Positions 36,213-64,000 of a DNA stretch of 64,000 bases are shown piece after piece. Positions within the stretch are counted from its first letter, which is position 1. Each line of letters starts with the position of its first letter. Position numbers and translations under genes: made by a program. Origin of the DNA: an uncultured Chloroflexia bacterium (GTDB lineage: Bacteria; Chloroflexota; Anaerolineae; Anaerolineales; UBA4823); the NCBI GenBank assembly GCA_963842455.1, contig CAWJHE010000004.1, positions 746 to 64,745 on the forward strand. The letters run 5' to 3'. The notes below the pieces were generated by a model. The model made no database searches and had not been told where the DNA came from. It saw nothing but the letters and a program-made list of their open reading frames with translations.

Positions 36213-37469
36213 TCAATTCGTACGCAAGAAATCTAATCCGTACTGCGCATCCAGGTAATTCGGGTTCTCCTCCAAGGCACGCCGGAAATCCGCTTCTGCC
36301 TGGATCCTATCGCCTTGCCGGTACATAGCCCAACCATGCCATAACCAGGCTTCCTCTGCATTCGGAGTAATCTGTAAAGCATACTCAGTCAATGCAATCA
36401 AATCATCCATTTGACCCGTGTGAAAATAGGCGATAAATGGACCAAACTGGTAACGCAACATCCGTTGCGGCAAACCCAGCTCGCGGGCTTTATCATACGC
36501 GTCAGTTGCCTCAATATAACGCTCAAAATACATCAGGTTCGTACCCAGGTTAAACCAGGCAAAAGCATTCTCCGGGTCAGATTGCGTTTCTTCTTGGGCT
36601 ACCACTAACGCATGCTCCCGGTTAACATCTGCATCCCAATGCTCGCCCATGATACTCTTTAACAATTCTTCTTGACCAGGCAAGTAGATCACAATATAAA
36701 CGCGGTTAAATGCCTGCCAATATTCATCCAGCGTATCATATGGGATTTCAAGATCTGGTCCGTGAAAGCTATCCTGGCCAATAAAATGACTGGCGGTGTC
36801 ATCATAACCGGTCAGCAACTGGTAGTGGGCTGCCCACAAGTCGTCATTCGCCCAAAACGGCTCATCAAAATGGAATGTTTCTTCAATCATAACGGGAATG
36901 CCAGCCGCTAAAAGTTTTTTAAGCAGATCAAGATCCCCACCCACCCGGTATTGGACATTTAGCCAACCAGCTCTTGTGCGTACATAGTAAGCAAGCTCTT
37001 CAACATTCACATTGCGATCTTCGCGAAAAGGCTTGAGCAGAGAAGCAATATCTTCCTGGTTTCCCTGCCAGCCATAATAGCGCAGGTACATCGCCAGACT
37101 GGCTGGCCCACAATTGTTGATATCCTGTTTTTCGTACCCCGGGCTGGTTAAAATCACGCTTTCTGGCAATGGGGTGGCTGTCGGATATTGTGTAGGTGTG
37201 ACTACCAAAGTTGGTGTGGGTGTATTAACTGGAGTGGAAGTAGGCGGAGCTATCGTCGGAGATGCATTTGCCTGCATAACCTGTGTAGGTGATGGCAACG
37301 CGGTAGGCATAGAACGGATCGGATTAATAATACTGCGCACATAAGCCATGGCAAAATCAACCCGCCAGCCTATCCGATCTTGAACCGCTGGTAACCAGAC
37401 AATCATCCCCGCTAAAATTAACACAACCCCCACTAAAAACAGGGTTTTTATCTTTTTTGACATGCGCAT
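36213..37469 (-). CDS. Membrane-anchored C39-like (papain-fold) peptidase domain protein with C-terminal TPR repeats
   Basis: It has a TM helix 'LFLVGVVLILAGMIVWL', a Pro/Thr linker, 'DINNCGPASLAMYLRYYGW' plus 'AAHYQLLTGYDD' (Cys/His of Peptidase_C39_2-type domains), and a TPR-like C-terminus. The start is set at M76 of the listed ORF to avoid overlap with the miaB promoter and start. Confidence 0.7.
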   Translation of the reverse strand: MRMSKKIKTLFLVGVVLILAGMIVWLPAVQDRIGWRVDFAMAYVRSIINPIRSMPTALPSPTQVMQANASPTIAPPTSTPVNTPTPTLVVTPTQYPTATPLPESVILTSPGYEKQDINNCGPASLAMYLRYYGWQGNQEDIASLLKPFREDRNVNVEELAYYVRTRAGWLNVQYRVGGDLDLLKKLLAAGIPVMIEETFHFDEPFWANDDLWAAHYQLLTGYDDTASHFIGQDSFHGPDLEIPYDTLDEYWQAFNRVYIVIYLPGQEELLKSIMGEHWDADVNREHALVVAQEETQSDPENAFAWFNLGTNLMYFERYIEATDAYDKARELGLPQRMLRYQFGPFIAYFHTGQMDDLIALTEYALQITPNAEEAWLWHGWAMYRQGDRIQAEADFRRALEENPNYLDAQYGLDFLRTN

Positions 37470-37625
37470 GGCGGCAATTTTATCACCAGTTGACTTGACT
37501 TTGGTGAACAAGGGATTAAGGAAAGGACAAATCCCGGTTATGAACTGAGTTTCCGCTAGACAGAGCTCTTTCGTTAGAAAAAAAGACGGATGGTACCCTG
37601 GATTATAACCTTTATGATTTTCTAA

Positions 37626-37654
37626 TTGCTCGTTTCCCTTTGGATTGTTATAAT
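37626..37654 (+). promoter_or_regulatory. Candidate sigma-70 promoter of miaB (-35 TTGCTC, 17-nt spacer, -10 TATAAT) that would give a leaderless mRNA
   Basis: The -10 ends 7 nt before the ATG at 37662 and no Shine-Dalgarno is present. Confidence 0.4.
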
Positions 37655-37661
37655 ACTGGAC

Positions 37662-39039
37662 ATGAAATATCACATTTGGACTGAAGGTTGTCAAATGAAT
37701 GTCGCGGATTCACTGCGAGTGGCATCCGCGCTTGAACATCTTGGTTATCACCCAACACCACGCCCTGAGGAAGCACAGGTGATCGTACTGAACACCTGTG
37801 TAGTACGCCAGAGTGCAGAAGATAAAGCTTATGGACGATTAAGTTCTTTGCGCCCCCTGAAGAAGCAGAGACCGGATTTGGTGATTAACTTGATGGGTTG
37901 TTTGGTTGGGGTTAAAGGCCACGAACGGTTACAAAAACGCTTTCCCTACGTGGATGTGTTTTCCCCACCCTCGGATCCTGGCCCTCTGATCGCCTTCTTG
38001 ACCCAGGGAGAAAGCCAGAGCCTGGAAGAGGCGCAAACACAGCAGCGCTTTGCTTTGATGGATGGAGACCTGGTTCTGCCGCAGGATGAAAGAGAAAAAC
38101 TGGTCGCATCCTTTGTGCCGGTGGTTTTGGGTTGTTCCCATGCCTGCACCTATTGCATCATCCCCTACCGGCGCGGCGTCGAACGCAGCCGCTCTGTCGG
38201 CGACATTGTTGCAGAGTCGCGCGCGTCTGGTATCGCAAGGCGTGAAAGAGATCACCCTTTTAGGTCAGATTGTTGACCGCTATGGAAAAGATATCCCAGA
38301 TGGACCCAACCTGGCCAGTTTGCTGCGCATCTTACATCAGATCGATGGCTTAGAAAGGATACGTTTTCTAACCTCGCACCCCAATTGGATGAACGATGAT
38401 CTCTTAGATGCGGTTGCAGAATTACCCAAAGTTATGCCGCATATCGAAGTCCCTGTACAGGCTGGGGATGACCAGGTCCTGGAGAACATGAAACGCGGTT
38501 ACACAGCAGCGGATTATCGGGAACTCGTCCAACGCATTCGCCAGCGCATCCCAGGTGTATCAATTGCAACCGATATCATCGTCGGCTTCCCAGGTGAGAC
38601 CGATGAGCAATTCCAACATACTTACGACCTCCTGGATGAGCTGCAAATGGATGTTGCCCACCTGGCGCGATATTCCACACGACCTGGAACCGTTGCCGAC
38701 CGGCGCATGCAGGATGATGTGCCTGAAGAGGAAAAAATGCGCCGTTTTCGCCTGCTTGAGAATTTACAAGAAGGCATTGCAACACGCATTAACTCAACCT
38801 ATCTGGGCGAGACGGTCGACGTCCTTTTCGAGGAGCAGGTACGCGGCAGGTGGCGAGGACGGACGCCCACCAACAAGCTAGTTTTTGTTCAATCGGATGA
38901 AGATTTACTCGGAGAATTACGGCCTGTGCAAATCACCTGGACTGGACCCTGGTCTATGCAAGGTCGTTTACCCAGGAGTTTCGCCAGTACCCAGCCAGTT
39001 GAAAACCTGACCATGCTGAACCCGATATCGAATGATTGA
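37662..39039 (+). CDS. miaB: tRNA-i6A37 methylthiotransferase MiaB (radical SAM), one frameshift near 38220
   Basis: It starts 'KYHIWTEGCQMNVADS', has the radical-SAM 'GCSHACTYCIIPYRRG', then 'GVKEITLLGQIVDRYG' and a TRAM C-terminus. The two ORFs join at '..DIVAESRA/LVSQGVKEI..'. Confidence 0.9.
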
Positions 39040-54578: not shown

Positions 54579-56219
54579 TTACGCCCGACTAATAGAGACA
54601 AAAACCATTGGGCGGCGTTTTGTCTTATTAAACAGGTATGACTTAATCGTTTGCTCCAGGTCCTCCTGCAAATTCGATTGACCTGAGCTGACAGCTTGTT
54701 TAATTAAATCGCGCGTAGCACTCAGCAAATCATCGCCATTGCGAGCATAGATGAACCCACGGGTGATAATTTCGGGTTCTTCCAGCAACTGATTCGTATA
54801 GCTTTGCATAGTCAGGTTGACCAGCACGAAGCCATCCCGAGCCAGGGCTTCTCTTTCGCGAACCACACTGGGACCGATATCCCCCACACCAGCGCCATCC
54901 ACAAAGACATAACCACCGGGAATGCGCTCGCCAAGATGCATTTCCCCATGTTCAAATTCGACAACCTGTCCATTTTCGATCACTGCAATGTGTTCATCCG
55001 CCATACCAACCAGGCGGGCGATGTTGGCGTGTTGTTTCAGATGTCGCAGCTCACCATGGATAGGGATAAAATACTTGGGCTGCACCAGGTGCAGCAGCAA
55101 CTTCATCTCTTCCTGGCTGGCATGTCCCGAGACATGAACCGGAGCGATGGCTTCGTAGATCACGCTTGCACCGCGCCTGAATAAGCGATTGATGGTCCTG
55201 TAAACGCTCTCCTCGTTCCCTGGGATCGGGTGAGAGGATAAAACAATCGTATCGCCAGGTAAAATATCGAATTGGCGATTGGTTCCGGTAGATAGCCGCC
55301 CCATGATCGAGGTCGGCTCGCCCTGCGTTCCGGTGGACATCAAAACGACTTCATGGGGTTTCATCTTCAAAGCCTGATCCAGGCTAACAACCAGGTCATC
55401 CGGCAAATCCAGGTAGCCCAGGTTACGCGCCATCTTGGCATTTTCCACCATGCTGGCGCCAACAAAAGTCATCTTGCGCCCGAACTGCATAGCCGCATTG
55501 GCTACCTGCTGCATACGGGAAATCAGCGAAGCAAAGCTGGCAATGATGATCCTGCCTTTTGCATTGCGAAACACATCGAAGAAAGCAGGGTCGATCACCC
55601 TTTCGGAGGGCGTCCAGCCAGGGCGGTCAGCGTTGGTCGAATCGGCCAGTAGAGCCAACACCCCGCGCCCAGCCAACTCGGCTAATTTGGCATAATCGGT
55701 TGGCCAGTTATCTACTGGCGTATGATCGAATTTATAGTCGCCGGAATGAACGACCAAACCGGCAGGCGTGGTAATGCCTAGTCCAACACCATCCGGAATA
55801 GAATGACAGACATGGAAAAACTCAACTGTAAAAGGGCCAATCTGAACCATTTCACCGGCTTGAACCGTGATTAATTGGGCTTTATCCAGCAAGCCGCCTT
55901 TCGATAGCTTGACCTCCACCAACCCACGGGTTAGCGGAGTGGCATAGATCGGAGCTTTGATCTGGTCCAAAACGTGAGTAATCGCGCCGGTGTGATCTTC
56001 ATGACCGTGAGTGATAACAATCCCACGCACCCAATCTTTTTTATCAGCCAAATAATGGATATCGGGGATGATATAGTCAATCCCCAGCATATCATTATCA
56101 GGAAACATTAAGCCTGTGTCAACGAGCAGGATATTCTCCCCGTACTCGTAACACATCATATTTTTACCAACTTCCCCTAACCCGCCCAGGGGGACGATCC
56201 TAAATTTCTTATCACTCAT
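54579..56219 (-). CDS. rnj: Ribonuclease J
   Basis: 'FRIVPLGGLGEVGKNMM', the metallo-beta-lactamase motif 'ITHGHEDHTGAI', a beta-CASP domain and an RNase J C-terminal domain are present. Confidence 0.93.
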   Translation of the reverse strand: MSDKKFRIVPLGGLGEVGKNMMCYEYGENILLVDTGLMFPDNDMLGIDYIIPDIHYLADKKDWVRGIVITHGHEDHTGAITHVLDQIKAPIYATPLTRGLVEVKLSKGGLLDKAQLITVQAGEMVQIGPFTVEFFHVCHSIPDGVGLGITTPAGLVVHSGDYKFDHTPVDNWPTDYAKLAELAGRGVLALLADSTNADRPGWTPSERVIDPAFFDVFRNAKGRIIIASFASLISRMQQVANAAMQFGRKMTFVGASMVENAKMARNLGYLDLPDDLVVSLDQALKMKPHEVVLMSTGTQGEPTSIMGRLSTGTNRQFDILPGDTIVLSSHPIPGNEESVYRTINRLFRRGASVIYEAIAPVHVSGHASQEEMKLLLHLVQPKYFIPIHGELRHLKQHANIARLVGMADEHIAVIENGQVVEFEHGEMHLGERIPGGYVFVDGAGVGDIGPSVVREREALARDGFVLVNLTMQSYTNQLLEEPEIITRGFIYARNGDDLLSATRDLIKQAVSSGQSNLQEDLEQTIKSYLFNKTKRRPMVFVSISRA

Positions 56220-56411
56220 ATACACTTACCTTGCCTCAAACAAAATACCCTGTCCGAAAAAAGTGGGCCAGGGCCTCTAATCTTACTTACATTTACAAAA
56301 ATCTTGGTGTTTGTAATGAAAAGAGGGGAAATTTCTTCTGCCCCGAGTACATATGCAAATGATTCACAATATTCATGTATGTCAAGATAAGTCCCTTTGG
56401 AAACCGGATGG

Positions 56412-56440
56412 ATTTTAGCATGTAAAAAAGTTTTTGTCAA
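56412..56440 (-). promoter_or_regulatory. Near-consensus sigma-70 promoter (-35 TTGACA, 17-nt spacer, -10 TAAAAT) upstream of rnj
   Basis: The minus strand reads 'ctttgacaaaaacttttttacatgctaaaatcc'. It implies a 5' UTR of about 185 nt. Confidence 0.5.
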
Positions 56441-56453
56441 AGAAAGTCTGCTC

Positions 56454-56853
56454 TTACTCCCCGTAAAACACCGGACTGGCCCATCTGCCGAGCGAAGGGT
56501 CATACCACCTCGCCTTATAATAATACAGCCCGAACTCAGCCTCATACGAAGCCTGGCCGGTGAACTGGTACCTGCCTGGCAGGCTGCCCTCGGCAAAACG
56601 CAGCTCACCCCAGGGCAGGTATCCCTGGCGGCTGAGCAGGCTGCCGTCCGTGTTGGCGGCCACGCTGGTGCTGCCCAGGTGATCGCCCAGCAACCATACG
56701 GGAGCAGCGCATGCCTGTACGCACGGCGACCCGCTGCGCCCCGGCGTAATAGTAACGCGTCATGCTGCTGGAGGCTACGTCCCACTCGAAGACCTCCCCG
56801 ATGTACACCGTAGCTGCTCCAGCGATCACGGATGACCACGCGCTGCCCGACAT
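56454..56853 (-). pseudogene. Rhs core remnant (third, decayed cassette)
   Basis: '..VIAGAATVYIGEVFEWDV..YYYAGAQRVAV' and 'LGDHLGSTSVAANTDGSLLSRQGYLPWGELRFAEG..GLYYYKARWYDPSLGRWASP' lie in two frames. Homology to the two larger Rhs genes stops after 'RWASP', before the DPxGH motif. No toxin domain is present. Confidence 0.8.
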
Positions 56854-56869
56854 GATCTACACATCACAC

Positions 56870-57815
56870 TCATATCATATCTGCACGATCATGGTGCCAG
56901 CTCGGGTAATACCCGCCTTCCAGGATCGCCTCAGGTTTCGCGCTCATGGATATTGACTTTGTAAATGAATACTTTCTTGCGTTTAGAATTTTCTGCGGAT
57001 ACATAATGGTGATAAACAAGATCCACAATCCATCCGGCGACCAGTACAGTTTTAGTATCTCTTGACCAGGGATAACCTCGTTCTCCATGGATCAAAGAGA
57101 GGTTCATCGGTTAAGCCTGATTGTCTACAGCATCGTCGTCAGCAAGCGAGATCACATACAATCCATCCAAGACCGACAAAGGCAATCTGGCTGCTATCCG
57201 GCGACCAGCTGGGATTGATGCCTTCCGCCAACTGGGTTTCCATTCCATTTGTCAAATTCAAAAGCATCAGTCGATACTGCTCGTCACCTTGTGGACCTAC
57301 CACCAGCCCGTAGACCAGTTCTTGCCTGGCTCGGGAATACGAAAACCCTGAAACTACATATCCAGCTTGATCCGAGTAATCTACCAAAAATTGTTTTTCT
57401 TCGCAAGTTGCAATGTCAAAGTGCACAATAGCCTCGAATTTTGTACAATCACGGTGTAAGGGTTTTCAGGGTCATCATAACTTTGTATCTGTTCGAAATA
57501 TGGTAGATTCCAATCGCAGACCTTGAAACGTTTCTTGCGCAAGTCCCAAACAGCCGGGCGACCTATACCTAACCCCTTACCTCTTGACAATCCGTAAAGA
57601 TATTGCCCATCCGCAGACCAGACCGGGCTTGTGAACTGGCGTTTGAGATCAAACACCTGGTTGCCTCGCCCATCAGCATCCACAAAACCGAGCCCATTAA
57701 ATCCTGCCTGGTAGATAATCTCTTTGTCTGGCAAGTTGTGGGGGATTGCCGGTTGGCAGGCAGGCGCACAAACCAGGAAAATCAAAGAAACGACGACCAT
57801 TTTGAAGGATTTCAT
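56870..57815 (-). pseudogene. Exported PD40/TolB-like beta-propeller repeat protein, split by several frameshifts
   Basis: It has a signal peptide 'MKSFKMVVVSLIFLVCAPAC' and PD40-like 'SPVWSADGQYLY', 'NPSWSPDSSQIAF' and 'LYWSPDGLWILF' in three different ORFs (57381-57815, 57139-57426 and 56870-57088). Confidence 0.55.
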
Positions 57816-58014
57816 CGCATTAACATCCTGTTTCTGACATGGGAAGCGCCGAAAACGTTATCCAGGTCTGGCAAGGCGGGTATGGGGATCGTCTCCTGAT
57901 GGAAGGTTATCATCGAATTCGGTGGGATGAAAATATTGGAAGCAGACCAGACCTCATCGAAGCTGTCGAAGTTTCTTTCTTTTTTAGTATCGTTTAAGAA
58001 TATCGTTTTCTGAA

Positions 58015-59967
58015 TCAGATTTTATTATACGCCGGATTAAAGAATTGAATTTCATCTGTATCCGGATCATACCCGACAGCGGCAACCGCATGACCGACCT
58101 CCATACCAGGTAAGGCGAAAGAAACCAGGACGGGATCGCCACGCAGAAGGCTTTCCAAGATATCCTCTCTTGTTCCTGTAGAGAAAGTAGCTTGAAGAGA
58201 GGGTTCAACCAGCCTTAAGGTGATAGTTTGTTGTACGGGGGGAACTCCGATACCTGCGTAAGTGTTTGGAAATAGGGGTTGAACATCACTTTGGGTGATG
58301 ACAGATCCAGAATAGATGCTAAAAACGACGGCAATCGAGACAACTGCGCAAGTATTGCCATCCTGTAGCTGTATGTAATCATCATTCCAGCCGGGGATAA
58401 ACCAGGGTTCATGTCCGGTAGGATCAATGTAGTTAAGCGGTGAATTTCTTGCATAACTATAGCGGTCCCAATCCAGCGGATTACCCGGATCGGGCGTGAT
58501 GCTATCCGGACTAGCCCACCTACCGAGCGAAGGATCATACCACCTTGCCTTGTAGTAATACAGCCCGAACTCAGCCTCATACGAAGCCTGGCCGGTGAAC
58601 TGGTACCTGCCTGGCAGGCCGCCCTCGGCAAAACGCAGCTCCCCCCAGGGCAGGTATCCCTGGCGGCTGAGCAGGCTGCCGTCCGTGTTGGCGGCCACGC
58701 TGGTGCTGCCCAGGTGATCTCCCAGTAGCCATACGGGGGAGGCATTTTCTAAGCGCGTGGCGACCCGCTGCGTTCCAGCGTAATAGTAGCGCCTCATGCT
58801 GCCCGTGGTTACCTCCCACTCGAAGACCTCCCCGATATACACCGTAGCCGCCCCATCGATCAGGCTAGCCACGCGTTGCCCGTCCCCGTCGTACACGAAG
58901 CTGACTTGCATCTCCCCAGAGATCACACTCACCAGGCGGTTCTCGGCGTCATAACCATACTCAACTTCTTCCGGCGGCTCGGGCGGGCTCGGGTCGGGGG
59001 TCGGGGTGGGGTCGCCGGGTGGCGGATAGGCTTGCTGCAGTCCGGCAGCCAGGGCGGTTTGCCTGGTGCTATCGAAAAAATGCACCAGGATGTCCCAGGC
59101 GCTGTGCAGCCAGGCAAGCAGCCCGGAAGGTTCAGCCCGGCTTTGCTCTTCTGGCAACGGGTAGGGGTAGGTTGGCGAACTCTGGCTCTCCGGCGGCGCG
59201 CTCAAGGTTTCCTCGGGTTCAGTCAGCAACACCAGCGGGAAATACAACCCCGGCCGGTAGGCTTTACGCACCAGGTTGCCATTGGGGTCATATTCATAGC
59301 GCCAGCCATCCGAGAGGGCTGTGACCGCATGGCTGTGCCCGCTGTCCAGGTACTGGTGATACAATTCGCCCTTCTGGCGCAGGTTGCCACTACCCGGGTC
59401 GTAAGCCATCTCCAGGCTGTAATCCCCCAAGCTGCTGTCGCCCCCACTGGCGAAAGCGCTCACCAGGCGGTCCAGGGCGTCGTAGTCAAACACCTGCGTT
59501 TGGGGCGCGCCAGCCAGGTAGTCCTGCAGGCTGAGCAGGTTGCCGCTCAGGTCATACGTGTAGCGCAGGTCTTGCAGGCTGTCGCTGTCGGCGGGCGTCC
59601 CGCTCAGCAGCTGCTGCAGGCGGCCCCCTTGTTGCTCCCAGGGGTAATAGCTGTACTGGCTGAGCACGGCCGCGTTCCCCAGGCTGCGCTGCACCAGGCG
59701 TCCGGCGGCGTCATAGGCGCTGGCAGACACGTAAGCGTAATCCCCCGTTACCGTAGCCAACTGCAAGCGCTGGTCGTAGCTGTAGCTGACTAGCTCGCCC
59801 AACTGCCCGTTGTTCCCACCCGGGTATTGCCTCCAGGCCAGTCCGTCTGCCGAGTTGTACCCCCAGGCGCTGGCAAAGGACCCATAGCTGCCCACCTGGC
59901 GCAGCTCACTCACCAGGCGACCGCGGACGTCGTAGCTCCAGCTGACGCTGCCGCTGGCATCGCTCAT
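58015..59967 (-). CDS. N-terminally truncated Rhs/YD-repeat protein with a C-terminal papain-fold (C39-like) Cys/His domain ('orphan' cassette 2)
   Basis: It has YD repeats ('YSYDQRL', 'YEYDPNGNLV', 'YGYDAENRLV') and the Rhs core end 'YYKARWYDPSLGRWASPDS..NYIDPTGH'. After that comes '..QDGNTCAVVSIA...GDPVLVSF...VGHAVAAVGYDPDTDEIQFFNP'. Confidence 0.85.
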   Translation of the reverse strand: MSDASGSVSWSYDVRGRLVSELRQVGSYGSFASAWGYNSADGLAWRQYPGGNNGQLGELVSYSYDQRLQLATVTGDYAYVSASAYDAAGRLVQRSLGNAAVLSQYSYYPWEQQGGRLQQLLSGTPADSDSLQDLRYTYDLSGNLLSLQDYLAGAPQTQVFDYDALDRLVSAFASGGDSSLGDYSLEMAYDPGSGNLRQKGELYHQYLDSGHSHAVTALSDGWRYEYDPNGNLVRKAYRPGLYFPLVLLTEPEETLSAPPESQSSPTYPYPLPEEQSRAEPSGLLAWLHSAWDILVHFFDSTRQTALAAGLQQAYPPPGDPTPTPDPSPPEPPEEVEYGYDAENRLVSVISGEMQVSFVYDGDGQRVASLIDGAATVYIGEVFEWEVTTGSMRRYYYAGTQRVATRLENASPVWLLGDHLGSTSVAANTDGSLLSRQGYLPWGELRFAEGGLPGRYQFTGQASYEAEFGLYYYKARWYDPSLGRWASPDSITPDPGNPLDWDRYSYARNSPLNYIDPTGHEPWFIPGWNDDYIQLQDGNTCAVVSIAVVFSIYSGSVITQSDVQPLFPNTYAGIGVPPVQQTITLRLVEPSLQATFSTGTREDILESLLRGDPVLVSFALPGMEVGHAVAAVGYDPDTDEIQFFNPAYNKI

Positions 59968-59981
59968 GCCGGTGCGCTGCC
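58411..59981 (-). repeat. Direct repeat copy 2 of the Rhs core (~1.55 kb)
   Basis: It is highly similar to 61458-63013. Homology begins 14 nt upstream of the ATG at 59967 and ends at the DPTGH codons. Confidence 0.85.
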
Positions 59982-60067
59982 TATTGGTTATTAATTTTGG
60001 TAAAAACTTCTTTGATATGAGCGGAATATATTATGTTAGTAAAGTACAATGGTTAGGTGTAATAATT

Positions 60068-60772
60068 TTACTCCCTTATACGCACAGGTGGATACTTCTT
60101 TGTAATCTTCCCATACCCATCCCAGGGCGTCCAATATTCACGTGGAGAAAAGTAACCAGCATCCAGAAGTTGTTCAAAGAATTCAGGGTCAAAGAATGCT
60201 ATTCCTCCTAGCTTATTCTCTGGTCTCAGTTCAGATCTGCGATATGCAGACTGTTGTAGCGTGTCAAAGTTAAAGCTAATCCCTCTTTCAGGATGAAATG
60301 CGAAAATCCTATAACTGGTAGTGGGTGCGCCCGGAATGCCACCTGTGGTTGGGATATTGAGGATATATTGTGGTTCTCCAAGTTGTTTCAGTGCATTGCT
60401 GAAAGAAATACCGAGTACTCCATTACCACCTTCGCTGAAGAATTGAATAAAGGAGACCTTACCATTGGATATATGGATCCAGCCCCCGAGACCTCTTTTC
60501 TTGAAATCAAAATAAATAACATCCTCAAAGATGTCTCGAGGGCGACCATTGAAGGTGATAGAGGATTGATCCACTTCAGGCAAGGTATTCAATAAATATG
60601 CAGCCTCATCTTTTGTTGTCCGACCTGGATAAATGCCTTTCCAGCAGGGCAGCTCACACTCCGAGCTCAGCAAAATAGTGGCACTGGATGGTTGGCAAGC
60701 AATGAGGAGAAGGATGAGTATCAGACATATAGCTAGGCAAGTATAAATAAATTTACGATTTCTGTTTATCAT
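60068..60772 (-). CDS. Lipoprotein; candidate immunity protein for the HExxH toxin domain
   Basis: It has a signal peptide with lipobox 'LLLIAC'. Its ATG is 1 nt after the stop of the upstream Rhs gene. The sequence is AT-rich like the toxin tip. No recognisable domain. Confidence 0.6.
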   Translation of the reverse strand: MINRNRKFIYTCLAICLILILLLIACQPSSATILLSSECELPCWKGIYPGRTTKDEAAYLLNTLPEVDQSSITFNGRPRDIFEDVIYFDFKKRGLGGWIHISNGKVSFIQFFSEGGNGVLGISFSNALKQLGEPQYILNIPTTGGIPGAPTTSYRIFAFHPERGISFNFDTLQQSAYRRSELRPENKLGGIAFFDPEFFEQLLDAGYFSPREYWTPWDGYGKITKKYPPVRIRE

Positions 60773-60773
60773 C

Positions 60774-63269
60774 TTAATTACCTATTAAAGAAACAGCTGA
60801 CTGAAGCCACAGTAAGATATCTGGCTGAGGAATTTCAGATGGGTCATGAACCATCCATGAAAATGCTTCGGCCAAGAAATCGGCTGTTGAGTAATTGCCA
60901 CCGCTATAACGAGGTTTTTGAGGGTCCCACCTATAAGATTCTGGGATACTATTTACTCCATTCTTCCAGCGTATTCCCGATGGTGACCCGCCCATAAATT
61001 CGATCAAAGCATCCGCCATGCCCCCACCGCACCAGGTCGCCGGGCACATGGATGTGCCAGTACTTATATCCAGAACATGGCCAAGTTCATGCGTAATCGT
61101 ATTTGTATTGATACCAGCATTTGAAAGATACACATCTTTAGCATGGAAGGGAACAATTCCTAAGATTCCGTTTGATGTGAACGGATTCACAATCCCCATC
61201 ACCATAGTTTGTATCAAATCGTTGTGATGAAAGGTGGTCCCCCCTAAGTTAGGAAGCATCCAGCCACGGCCATTTCCATCCATCAGGGTCGATAGTTTAT
61301 TTTCGATGGCAATACCTGAGTCGAGCAGAATAAATAACTCTTTCTTGGTCCAATTTCCCGCTACATTCCATTGAAAAGACAGGTTAATTGCAGCAATAAC
61401 GTCGTATTGTGTTACCTCACAATCATCCTCAGTAACTCCCGCGCCATCACAGGCCTTATGCCCTGTAGGATCATAGAATCTGATAGGATTGTTTCGTGCG
61501 TAAGCAAACCGATCCCAATCCAGCGGGTTACCCGGATCGGGCACGATGCTATCCGGCTGGGAAAAACGGCCTAAATGGGGGTCATACCATCTCGCCTTGA
61601 AGTAGTACAACCCGAACTCAGCCTCGTACGAAGCCTGGCCGGTGAACTGGTACCTGCCCGGCAGGCTGCCCTCGGCGAAGCGCAGCTCGCCCCAGGGCAG
61701 GTATCCCTGGCGGCTGAGCAGGCTGCCGTCTGTGTTGGCCGCCACGCTGGTGCTGCCCAGGTGATCGCCCAACAGCCACACGGGAGAGGTATTTTCTAAG
61801 CGCACAGCCACCCGCTGCGCCCCGGCGTAATAGTAGCGCGTCATGCTGGCGGCGGTTACCTCCCACTCGAAGACCTCCCTGATATACACCGTCACTTCCC
61901 CAGCGATCACGGATGCCACGCGCTGCCCGTCTCCGTCATAGAGGATGCTGGCTTGCATCTCCCCCGCGCTGACGCTCACCAGGCGGTTTTCAGCATCATA
62001 GCCGTACTCGATCTCTTCCGGCGGTTCGGGCGGGCTCGGGTCAGGGGTAGGCGTGGGATCGTCCTGCTGCAATGCGGCGGCCTGGGCGGTGTGCACGCCC
62101 CCGCCAAACCGGCTCGTCAGGAAGTCCCAAGCGCTGTGCAGCCAGGCTAGCAGCCCACCAGGTTCAGCCCGGCTTTGCTCTTCTGGCAGCGGGTAGGGGG
62201 AGGTTGGCTCAGCCTGGCTCTCCGGCGGCGCGCCCAAGGTTTCCTCAGGTTCGGTCAGCAGCACCAGAGGGAAATACAGCCCCGGCCGGTAGGCTTTGCG
62301 CACCAGGTTGCCGTTGGGGTCATATTCATAGCGCCAGCCGTCCGAGACGGCGGTGACCGCATGGCTGTGCCCGCTATCCAGGTAGCGGTAATACAATTCG
62401 CCTTTCTGGCTCAAGTTGCCGCTGTCCGGGTCATAGGCCATCTCCAGGCTGTAATCCCCCAGGCCATTGTCGCCCCCGCTGGCGGAAGCGCTCACCAGGC
62501 GGTCCAGGGCGTCGTAGTCAAACACCTGCGTCTGGGGCGCGCCAGCCAGGTAGTCCTGCAGGCTGAGCAGGTTGCCGCTCAGGTCATGCGTGTAGCGCAG
62601 GTCTTGCAGGCTGTCGCTGTCGGCGGGCGTCCCGCTCAGCAGCTGCTGCAGGCGCCCCCCTTGTTGCTCCCAGGGGTAATAGCTGTACTGGCTGAGCACG
62701 GCCGCGTTCCCCAGGCTGCGCTGCACCAGGCGTCCGGCGGCGTCATAGGCGCTGGCAGACACGTAAGCATACTCCCCCGTTACCGTAGCCAACTGCAAGC
62801 GCTGGTCGTAGCTGTAGCTGACCAGCTCGCCCAACTGCCCGTTGTTCCCGCCCGGGTATTGCCTCCAGGCCAGTCCGTCCGCCGAGTTGTATCCCCAGGC
62901 GCTGGCAAAGGACCCATAGCTGCCCACCTGGCGCAGCTCGCTCACCAGGCGGCCGCGGGCGTCGTAGCTCCAGCTGACGCTGCCGCTGGCGTCGCTCATG
63001 CCGGTGCGCTGCCCAATCCCGTTTACCCCCTGGTCGTAACTGTAGCTGACCGGGGCGGCGTTGGCAACGATGGCGGCGCAATTCCCCCCGCTGGCGTTGC
63101 TGTAGCTCTTTCCCAGCAAGCGGTTGAGGCTGTCATAGCTCAGGCTGGTCAGGCAGCCGCGGGCATCGGTCTGTTCCACCAGGTTGCCCAGGGCGTCATA
63201 GGCGTAGCTCCAGGCGGCCAGGGCGGTGTGCATGTCCTGCTGAACCAACTCGTCAAGGCAGCCAATCAA
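60774..63269 (-). CDS. N-terminally truncated Rhs/YD-repeat protein with a C-terminal HExxH metallopeptidase-like domain ('orphan' cassette 1)
   Basis: The 831-aa ORF opens at a TTG directly after an in-frame TGA. It has YD repeats and the core end 'YYFKARWYDPHLGRFSQPDS..RFYDPTGH'. A 227-aa tail follows, containing 'NTITHELGHVLD'. Confidence 0.88.
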   Translation of the reverse strand: MIGCLDELVQQDMHTALAAWSYAYDALGNLVEQTDARGCLTSLSYDSLNRLLGKSYSNASGGNCAAIVANAAPVSYSYDQGVNGIGQRTGMSDASGSVSWSYDARGRLVSELRQVGSYGSFASAWGYNSADGLAWRQYPGGNNGQLGELVSYSYDQRLQLATVTGEYAYVSASAYDAAGRLVQRSLGNAAVLSQYSYYPWEQQGGRLQQLLSGTPADSDSLQDLRYTHDLSGNLLSLQDYLAGAPQTQVFDYDALDRLVSASASGGDNGLGDYSLEMAYDPDSGNLSQKGELYYRYLDSGHSHAVTAVSDGWRYEYDPNGNLVRKAYRPGLYFPLVLLTEPEETLGAPPESQAEPTSPYPLPEEQSRAEPGGLLAWLHSAWDFLTSRFGGGVHTAQAAALQQDDPTPTPDPSPPEPPEEIEYGYDAENRLVSVSAGEMQASILYDGDGQRVASVIAGEVTVYIREVFEWEVTAASMTRYYYAGAQRVAVRLENTSPVWLLGDHLGSTSVAANTDGSLLSRQGYLPWGELRFAEGSLPGRYQFTGQASYEAEFGLYYFKARWYDPHLGRFSQPDSIVPDPGNPLDWDRFAYARNNPIRFYDPTGHKACDGAGVTEDDCEVTQYDVIAAINLSFQWNVAGNWTKKELFILLDSGIAIENKLSTLMDGNGRGWMLPNLGGTTFHHNDLIQTMVMGIVNPFTSNGILGIVPFHAKDVYLSNAGINTNTITHELGHVLDISTGTSMCPATWCGGGMADALIEFMGGSPSGIRWKNGVNSIPESYRWDPQKPRYSGGNYSTADFLAEAFSWMVHDPSEIPQPDILLWLQSAVSLIGN
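61458..63013 (-). repeat. Direct repeat copy 1 of the Rhs core (~1.55 kb)
   Basis: See 58411-59981. The two copies differ mainly by indels in the Pro-rich insert. Confidence 0.85.
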
Positions 63270-63452
63270 TCACGCGAAGTGCCAGTTTCGCGCACCCTTT
63301 CATTAAATTGTTAAGGTTCCAATAGACGTTGAGTTTATCGCATTTCATCCATTGCCATGGCATAAGGAAAGAGCAGATGGGTTTCCTCTCTGCTCTGACA
63401 GCGAGGATAAAGCGACAAACTCATTTGCTTTTAATGGTCCATATTTGCCAGA

Positions 63453-63779
63453 TCATTGTGATGGAGAATTCCATCCTGCATTTATATTATTAACAGCCTG
63501 TTCAAGGACACGCTTTAACCAGTCGTTTGCTTCAGGGGATGATTGATTAATGATATACGAATAGACACCAACATCTTCATGGTAAATCACCTTAAAGTTA
63601 GCCCCTTCCATGTCCAAAGTAGCGACCCTCGAATAAATTCCATCCAAGGTCTCCAATATTCTAGCGTGCATGTGTATCAGTTGATCAAGCACTACCTCGA
63701 TGTCCTCATACTTTTCCAAACCAACAAAATAATATTCAACTGTGCCAGTGTCATTTACACCGGGCTTTAGAATGACCAT
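63453..63779 (-). CDS. Small cytoplasmic protein; candidate immunity protein for the toxin tip that enters from beyond 64000
   Basis: 108 aa with no signal peptide. A GGAGG Shine-Dalgarno is followed by the ATG, 15 nt after the upstream stop. No recognisable domain. Confidence 0.5.
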   Translation of the reverse strand: MVILKPGVNDTGTVEYYFVGLEKYEDIEVVLDQLIHMHARILETLDGIYSRVATLDMEGANFKVIYHEDVGVYSYIINQSSPEANDWLKRVLEQAVNNINAGWNSPSQ

Positions 63780-63794
63780 CGTGACCTCCGCTTA

Positions 63795-64000
63795 TCATTT
63801 ATACACCCCTAGGTCTGTATTTACACTGGGCCTTGAGCGTTGAGAACTATCAATAATATACTGATAGATATCATCTCCTGAGTATCCTTTGTCCTTTGCT
63901 TTTTGAATTACCTGTTCCCACGTGAGGTTGGGCTCCTCGCGCATCAATTTTTCAGCTAGCTCTCGATCAGCCATTAAATTTCTCGCTTGAGTTCTGTATT
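63795..64000 (-). CDS. 3' end of an ORF that runs off the window (possible C-terminal tip of the main polymorphic toxin)
   Basis: The minus frame is open from the window edge to the TGA at 63795-63797: '..YRTQARNLMADRELAEKLMREEPNLTWEQVIQKAKDKGYSGDDIYQYIIDSSQRSRPSVNTDLGVYK*'. It could instead be a 59-aa ORF starting at ATG 63974. Confidence 0.45.
   Translation of the reverse strand, partial: YRTQARNLMADRELAEKLMREEPNLTWEQVIQKAKDKGYSGDDIYQYIIDSSQRSRPSVNTDLGVYK

Follow-up and report, generated by a model that had tools for sequence, protein, structure and literature searches.

In the enterobacterial Rhs loci of Escherichia coli, Salmonella Typhimurium and Dickeya dadantii, truncated core fragments without translation signals carry differing C-terminal toxins and are followed by immunity genes, and the core homology is a substrate for recombination (PMC3150448, PMC3967940, PMC7043789). 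These orphan modules, which lack translation signals and retain their immunity genes, can be loaded onto the main gene by recombination (PMC3150448, PMC3967940). Polymorphic toxin systems, which are likewise similar to the locus described here, combine a trafficking domain, RHS repeats, a variable C-terminal toxin and an immunity gene; standalone cassettes and cassette arrays have been described among them, and RHS-repeat loci are abundant in Chloroflexi (PMC3482391). Here we analyzed the minus strand of positions 56454-64000 in a 64,000-nucleotide (nt) stretch of contig CAWJHE010000004.1 (the whole stretch is called the window; the source contig has 65,847 bp, leaving at most 1.85 kb outside). 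We consider it probable that the locus is the distal part of an Rhs polymorphic-toxin locus, namely a tandem array of displaced (orphan) cassettes in an Anaerolineales bacterium. Each cassette consists of a 5'-truncated, GC-rich piece of the shell ending in DPxGH, a different AT-rich tip, and a partner gene for that tip (candidate immunity gene). The order on the minus strand is the end of an upstream toxin open reading frame (ORF), called tip 0, with an ORF of 108 amino acids (aa), followed by cassette (ii), cassette (iii) and core remnant (iv).

The locus differs from the enterobacterial loci in its Anaerolineales host, in that no type VI secretion system (T6SS), PAAR or VgrG context is visible in the window, and in that the main gene itself was not seen. 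Furthermore, its orphan cores are long (1.55-1.8 kb) and contain a Pro-rich insertion, its toxins are peptidases with exported partners, and main genes in relatives have SpvB/TcB-like or carbohydrate-binding-type N-termini. Since RHS toxin loci had already been reported to be abundant in Chloroflexi, the non-proteobacterial setting is not new in itself. What is new here is limited to the host lineage, an anthrax lethal factor (ALF)-like toxin and lipoprotein pair that has no family model, and the Pro-rich shell insertion of ~97 aa.

Truncated Rhs cores and related arrays

The core of cassette (ii) (61458..63290, minus strand) is a 5'-truncated Rhs YD-shell of 604 codons. Its ORF encodes 831 aa (60774-63269) and, as the original prediction made from the letters of the window had stated, opens at a TTG (63269) directly after an in-frame TGA (63270-63272). 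The profile searches that the prediction had proposed gave a divided result. ORF (ii) matched RHS_repeat (PF05593, E 2.7e-22), YD_repeat_2x, TIGR01643 and, at residues 523-604, the RHS-associated core TIGR03696 (68.0 bits, cut-off 32.5); ORF (iii) matched PF05593 (E 1.2e-15), TIGR01643 and TIGR03696 (70.8 bits, cut-off 32.5), and its tip matched Peptidase_C39_2, while no Pfam or NCBIfam match was found for the ALF-like tip, tip 0, or their partners, the lipoprotein and the 108-aa ORF. Core (ii) ends with RFYDPTGH and core (iii) with IDPTGH, both containing the DPxG self-cleavage motif.

Core (iii) (58411..59981, minus strand; 519 codons) belongs to an ORF of 650 aa (58015-59967), whose start, ATG 59967, is a Met codon from within the core. 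The repetition of residues 91-604 of (ii) that had been seen in this ORF was reproduced in its residues 1-519, 455 of which are identical (88%). The DNA alignment of 63013-61513 with 59981-58466 (88.6% over 1521 nt) indeed begins 14 nt upstream of the ATG, and the same 5' boundary was also found in the related array L055. Remnant (iv) (56466..56849, minus strand), previously described as a ~400-bp frameshifted piece, is 89% identical to both cores, truncated at both ends and without a tip. Its reading (56849-56471, ~380 nt) is split over two frames, ends at RWASP and covers only positions 1-48 of the 76 positions of TIGR03696. No further core copies were found elsewhere in the window.

The lack of an N-terminal secretion or trafficking region in (ii), also claimed earlier, was borne out by comparison with longer homologues. 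Residue 17 of (ii) aligns to residue 670 of P0006, a single-chain homologue of 1363 aa (48% identity), and to residue 122 of P0001 (63% identity); in the related locus L005, P0001 is the final piece called within a main gene of about 2270 aa. Since (ii) starts at residue 670 of P0006 and (iii) 90 residues later, the ORFs of the window are fragments; compared with a complete Rhs protein, the N-terminal two thirds are missing from the orphan cassettes, and neither the N-terminal secretion/trafficking region nor a complete shell is present in (ii) or (iii). No Shine-Dalgarno sequence precedes TTG 63269 or ATG 59967, and a consensus scan, by which Chloroflexota promoter types are poorly covered, found no promoter-like site upstream of (ii) or (iii). 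With the Tc TcB-TcC cocoons and bacterial Rhs shells of known structure (YenC2 4IGL, TcdB2-TccC3 4O9X, RhsA 7Q97 and Tse5 8CP6), the ORFs share the YD-repeat shell, the RHS-associated core domain and the DPxG motif before the toxin. Unlike these, they comprise only the last ~520-600 shell residues, from which the formation of a closed cocoon cannot be shown, and no TcA-like translocator, SpvB domain or propeller was found in the window.

A Pro-rich insertion of ~97 aa lies inside core (ii) (residues 327-423; 62001..62291, minus strand). This low-complexity segment, LTEPEETLGAPPESQ...DPTPTPDPSPPEPPEE, stands in place of ~10 residues that are contiguous in homologues, its flanks being joined from 976 to 986 in P0006 and from 421 to 432 in P0001. 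The insertion is also present in (iii) (about 58950-59260), L053 and P0002. The identity between cores (ii) and (iii) is mosaic, with 96-99% over 63000-62500 and 51-93% further 3'. Synonymous divergence (dS) is 0.089 in the first 170 shared codons vs 0.52 in the rest, and the overall ratio of nonsynonymous to synonymous divergence (dN/dS) is 0.21.

In the Rhs elements of E. coli, the core is GC-rich and the tips are AT-rich relative to the genome. A contrast of this kind, which had been judged by eye in the window, was measured as GC fractions of 0.645 in core (ii), 0.632 in core (iii) and 0.632 in remnant (iv), against 0.497 in the window and 0.41-0.47 in tips and partner genes. Taking L005, L053 and the window together, the cores have ~63-64% GC, the flanks 50-55% and the tips 39-49%. 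Opposite the GC-rich cores, two long antisense ORFs, 62175-63314 (plus strand, 379 aa) and 58876-59793 (plus strand, 305 aa), were rejected as genes: with only 3 stops over 1.8 kb in that antisense frame, they are artefacts of base composition.

The layout of a main rhs gene followed by orphan toxin-immunity cassettes, which the original prediction had recognized, is supported by relatives. In L005, the main gene region spans ~6.8 kb, includes an SpvB domain and was called in two pieces (about 1530 aa and 811 aa). Behind it come an Imm11-like gene and three truncated Rhs ORFs (491, 475 and 340 aa), all of which have a small ORF downstream; one of the truncated ORFs carries Tox-REase-5 and one has a PD40 protein downstream. 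The tandem same-orientation layout is also found in L053, L054, L055 and L056, and cassettes of the window recur in L053, L055 and L056. These arrays occupy different genome positions (DUF1786/HSP90 flanks in L053 and L055, a coenzyme A (CoA)-ligase region in L056), and their upstream neighbours differ. The match of L055 (61985-59796, 94.7%) crosses the lipoprotein gene and reaches the beginning of core (iii), and L056 is 92.2% identical to the window over 58680-56499. Because L055 spans the junction between the lipoprotein gene and core (iii), and L056 that from the C39 tip through the PD40 gene to remnant (iv), both inner junctions are independently confirmed.

Two further loci were observed in the course of these comparisons. 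In L054 (1-3523), three minimal cassettes are packed into 3.5 kb, each with ~25 core codons (PNP.NP.DWDRYAYV.NNP..YNDPSGNKACDG), a diverged ALF-like tip and then a CxPPCW-family partner (214 and 226 aa). L006 (1-2611), from the same Joint Genome Institute (JGI) metagenome as L001, a contig described below, contains a cassette of the same core type (84-88% identical) whose tip resembles an AHH nuclease (E 2e-4) and whose partner is Imm11; another core, truncated and frameshifted, comes after it. This cassette may belong to the part of the array beyond 64000 or to a sister strain. Apart from the source contig, searches with the 108-aa, 234-aa and RNase J proteins led to nothing but short contigs ending at the core repeats. 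There is no record of the exact 831-aa product, and a scan of genome contigs of the GTDB representative set found only distant proteobacterial Rhs genes (24-39% identity). PADLOC found nothing.

Toxin tips and their partner genes

Sequence comparisons support toxin-immunity relations for all three cassettes, because the pairs recur: the ALF-like tip with the lipoprotein in L053 and L054, the C39-like tip with the PD40 protein in L056, and tip 0 with the small ORF in L008. The three tips themselves are unrelated. The earlier characterization of the toxins as peptidases with exported partners was right for both complete tips and for two of the three partners; the 108-aa partner, however, has no signal peptide.

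The tip of (ii) (60774..61457, minus strand; 227 aa) is a predicted ALF-like zinc metallopeptidase toxin domain with HELGHVLD ... ADFLAEAF, which agrees with the HExxH domain previously noticed after RFYDPTGH. Its family comprises 440 representative clusters, most of which begin with an Rhs core end; E124 and H127 are invariant, and H123, D130 and the YGN...A..F columns show at least 90% conservation. The tip of the window has no Pfam match at E<=1, including ATLF, and only one of 99 family members matches ATLF (E 1e-3). An AlphaFold model built with these 99 sequences, which replaced an earlier one from 9 sequences (predicted local distance difference test, pLDDT, 67.5), reached a pLDDT of 93.3. 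When the model was compared with the PDB by Foldseek, the top six hits were all anthrax lethal factor (E 1.7e-3, probability 1.00, TM-score 0.50). The family profile also found lethal factor in the PDB at E 6e-4 to 2e-3, covering both the HExxH and the ..FAEAF regions, as well as the core ends of TcC/YenC2; a PDB search with the single sequence gave nothing useful.

Like anthrax lethal factor (M34, Pfam ATLF), the tip has HExxH..D and a downstream ..FAEAF helix, and its predicted fold is closest to the catalytic domain of lethal factor. However, the identity is ~15% and the TM-score 0.5, Pfam ATLF does not match, and the tip is a single domain of 227 aa with a probable extracytoplasmic bacterial target, vs mitogen-activated protein kinase kinases (MAPKKs) in the case of lethal factor. 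On the basis of the sequence profile and the predicted fold, the tip of (ii) is best filed as a distant ALF-like zincin and not as a member of M34.

Directly downstream, starting 1 nt after the stop of (ii) as had been noted, is the gene of a 234-aa lipoprotein (60068..60772, minus strand; lipobox LLLIAC), the candidate immunity protein for the ALF-like tip. Its homologues carry the motif C.PPCW..I.PG.TT..EA, and homologues with CxPPCW immediately follow ALF-like tips in L053 (34% identity, E 3e-35) and, in two instances, in L054; L055 has a copy with an identity of at least 90%. Tox-ALF-MPTase and Tox-PL-C39 were listed as toxin classes by Zhang et al. 2012 (PMC3482391), who called lipoprotein immunity exceptional and cited only Imm65. 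Unlike Tox-ALF-MPTase of that study, the domain in the window has no Pfam model, is borne on Rhs and not delivered by a Photorhabdus virulence cassette (PVC), and has a lipoprotein partner, not Imm-SuFu.

The tip of (iii) (57816..58410, minus strand) is a predicted C39-like papain-fold cysteine peptidase. It matches Peptidase_C39_2 over profile positions 11-143 of 143 (E 3e-7, 31.6 bits, cut-off 24) and contains GNTCAV and VGHAV. Its matches in the PDB were ignored, being designed proteins. A chromosomal protein of 493 aa in the window (36213-37694, minus strand), with Peptidase_C39_2 (E 2.5e-12) and TPR repeats, belongs to the same peptidase family but stands 20 kb off in a housekeeping context.

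The partner of the C39-like tip is a pseudogene of a PD40 beta-propeller protein with a signal peptide (56890..57815, minus strand), which reads in three frames. Intact PD40 versions have 305/306 aa (P0429 and P0430), and in L056 an intact 306-aa PD40 gene with a signal peptide overlaps the stop of the C39 ORF. The intact C39 tip of L056 has 228 aa and aligns to the window in two frames. Relative to L056, the window has 16 one- or two-base indels: those at 58018 and 57987 remove the last ~67 codons of the C39 tip, which are out of frame after the stop of the ORF at 58015, and nine frame-changing indels, located between 57436 and 56896, leave the PD40 gene split over three frames. Both the truncation of the tip and the pseudogene had been missed in the original prediction. 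Frameshifts due to sequencing or assembly errors were judged unlikely, and the decay was taken as real, because the indels in cassette (iii) and PD40 are not in homopolymers and the window has no gaps relative to short-read contigs over 13.7 kb. Judging from these frameshifts, distal cassette (iii) is decaying: its core is intact, its tip damaged and its partner dead. As a separate observation, the same T is missing in GAGGC(T)GAGTT in two core copies of L056, near 9245 and 11270 (window 58573 and 56538), which could be a systematic long-read error of that contig or a shared frameshift.

At the proximal end, the 3' end of an upstream Rhs-type toxin ORF (tip 0; 63795..64000, minus strand) is open from 64000 to its stop at 63795, and the 108-aa partner (63453..63779, minus strand), a candidate immunity protein, has GGAGG upstream of its ATG. 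The open frame entering from beyond 64000 and the Shine-Dalgarno-coupled ORF of the original prediction were thus both seen again. L001, a 1028-nt contig from another sample (99.9% identical), extends the tip 0 ORF by 318 nt. The start of the ORF in L001, VTSAVGDAALRFVDPIDAVFTGVECLQGQCSG.DILFAILPVVNGGLD, is nearly identical to a linker in the L053 and P0001 tips, where it comes after DPTGH and a transmembrane helix and before a different toxin in each. Since this linker is common to L001, L053 and P0001, the upstream ORF is another Rhs C-terminal region. The toxin part of tip 0 recurs in 40 metagenome loci in a scan of metagenome contigs, and the source contig is not among these 40 relatives. 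In L008, an unrelated locus, a homologous ORF of 110 aa directly follows the tip 0 toxin domain. Tip 0 and its partner are intact and translationally coupled. Along the array there is therefore a gradient of decay, from tip 0 and its partner, both intact, through (ii) and the lipoprotein, also intact, and the damaged (iii), to the stump (iv). Note that a second swap point was observed inside the tips (L001 3-150, L053 100-330, P0001 residues 612-700), where a linker ending in VNGGLD is common to differing toxin domains: the tip 0 type and two HNH-like 'HH.FS.K' types with Imm11-like partners.

Host and distal edge of the array

The housekeeping gene rnj (RNase J; 54579..56225, minus strand) flanks the array. 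It was identified by Pfam RNase_J domains and by synteny with L047-L049, three contigs of close relatives. The RNase J of the window is 93% identical to a protein of an Anaerolineales metagenome-assembled genome (MAG), and the closest homologues of the Rhs ORFs are from Anaerolineales or Anaerolineae. Because of both results the host is identified by homology as an Anaerolineales bacterium (Chloroflexota), in agreement with the earlier guess of a non-proteobacterial, possibly Chloroflexota, background.

The genes downstream of rnj in L047-L049 are syntenic with the window (two DUF4491 genes, PCMT, a luciferase-like gene and M42, onward to DUF3160). Upstream of rnj, these relatives have groES-groEL at a distance of only ~320 nt, and no Rhs sequence was found there. 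Since close relatives have groES-groEL and no Rhs at this place, the array is, judging from gene order, a lineage-specific insertion or rearrangement. In the window, the place of groES-groEL upstream of rnj is taken by the Rhs array, and the window has no groEL.

The distal edge of the array is sharp. Remnant (iv) ends at ~56465, 25 nt upstream of the rnj promoter-like site (56412..56440, minus strand), which has TTGACA-17-TAAAAT with an upstream TG (11/12 matches). This site was the best promoter-like site of the region in the consensus scan (56440-56412), and its sequence is kept in the groEL-rnj spacer of L047 (93% over 43 nt). Contigs of the same species from other samples (L050-L052) align to the window without gaps at 98.4-98.9% identity and either begin at 56465 or diverge exactly there; the junction between the remnant and rnj is present in L050 at 98.4%. 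The divergence of L051 and L052 at 56465 indicates that the locus is strain-variable. At the 56465 junction, all that L051 (1-152) and L052 (1-82) have of a core is a relic of ~40 nt; it is of a different type (YLNRWIQP, resembling the L005 core), with unrelated AT-rich sequence upstream of it.

Alternative explanations and proposed function

Several points weigh against reading the locus as the distal part of a main rhs gene with orphan cassettes. No full-length rhs gene with this core was observed; at most 1.85 kb of the source contig lies beyond the window, and the short contigs of other samples end at the core repeats. The silence of the orphans is deduced solely from missing consensus signals, with Chloroflexota promoter types poorly covered. 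The array in L055 starts with a short-core cassette beside an unrelated opposite-strand gene and has no adjacent main gene, so that orphan arrays can stand without one. Finally, the frameshifts of cassette (iii) could in principle be local assembly errors.

Three other explanations were considered, each of them less likely than an orphan array. It is unlikely that the cassettes are decaying, non-functional recombination relics, serving neither as toxin reservoir nor as immunity source. The stump (iv), the frameshifted tip of (iii), the nine frame-changing indels in the PD40 partner and the missing expression signals of the orphan cores are consistent with this explanation. However, (ii), its tip and the lipoprotein gene are intact, and so are the translationally coupled tip 0 and partner. 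Moreover, 604 codons without a stop would arise by chance at 64% GC with a probability of about 1e-7, the dN/dS of 0.21 does not fit relics, and the 96-99% identical tract indicates that the cores exchanged sequence recently.

Still less probable is that each of the two ORFs (831 aa and 650 aa) is complete and independently expressed as a TcC-like half-shell subunit, pairing with a separate TcB-like protein (SpvB, propeller and half-shell), as do TccC paralogues of Tc toxins. Their sizes resemble TcC (a 604-aa core and a 227-aa tip), the L005 main gene region has SpvB and was called as two pieces of about 1530 aa and 811 aa, and the ALF family profile matches TcC/YenC2 core ends. Nevertheless, the ORFs begin mid-repeat at varying points, the core of the ALF cassette starting at 63290 in the window, at the equivalents of 63220 in L056, 63180 in L053 and 61985 in L055, and core (iii) at 59981. 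No Shine-Dalgarno sequence is present, one start being a TTG right after a stop and the other an internal Met codon, and (ii) lacks about 105 residues present in P0001. Where the L005 pieces meet, they overlap in different frames and have no start signals, suggesting a single gene with frameshifts, and the homologue P0006 is a single chain of 1363 aa. Shorter versions (340 aa; 25 aa of core) form the same kind of arrays.

Least likely of all is that the array or its order is an assembly artefact, with strain variants of one rhs 3' end strung together via the shared core: other-sample contigs do break at core boundaries and the locus is strain-variable (L051 and L052 differ upstream of 56465), but the cores, whose duplication by assembly the original prediction had considered, are 11% diverged, with different tips, different 5' ends and distinct unique segments, the inner junctions recur in the independent assemblies L055 (lipoprotein-core (iii)) and L056 (C39-PD40-remnant (iv)) and the remnant-rnj junction in L050, and the same layout is seen in L005, L053, L054 and L006.

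For the orphan array, we propose the following mechanism. A full-length rhs gene would lie upstream, beyond 64000; in relatives, such genes have an SpvB/TcB-like or other N-terminus. The shell of the main gene product would be exported, and would enclose the C-terminal toxin and then release it onto neighbouring cells. Orphan toxins would stay silent until one of them is brought onto the expressed gene by homologous recombination between the 1.5-kb core repeats, and orphan partner genes may be read through from upstream, protecting against kin with those toxins. Given that one partner is a lipoprotein and the other has a signal peptide, both peptidases, the ALF-like zinc enzyme and the C39-like cysteine enzyme, would act outside the cytoplasmic membrane. 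The cassettes would decay with distance from the main gene, (iv) being a stump fused to the rnj promoter region.

A bolder and tentative suggestion is that the ALF-like peptidase and the CxPPCW lipoprotein constitute an undescribed toxin-immunity family acting on the envelope of Chloroflexota and relatives, with a target outside the cytoplasmic membrane, and that cassette arrays are mainly immunity islands and not toxin reservoirs. Two arrays of ALF cassettes can be cited for such islands, L054 with its ~25 core codons and L055 with no adjacent main gene.

The picture of a main rhs gene plus orphans, obtained mostly from Enterobacteria, is extended here to an uncultured Anaerolineales lineage at the level of base-by-base anatomy. 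The locus displays a decay gradient along the array, together with the same cassettes shuffled between arrays at different genome positions, and leaves the concept of how Rhs cassette loci work unchanged. It supplies two candidate pairs of a peptidase toxin and an exported partner, namely the ALF-like zincin with the lipoprotein and the C39-like peptidase with the PD40 protein. Both pairs could reveal envelope targets in Chloroflexota, whose envelope is itself debated.

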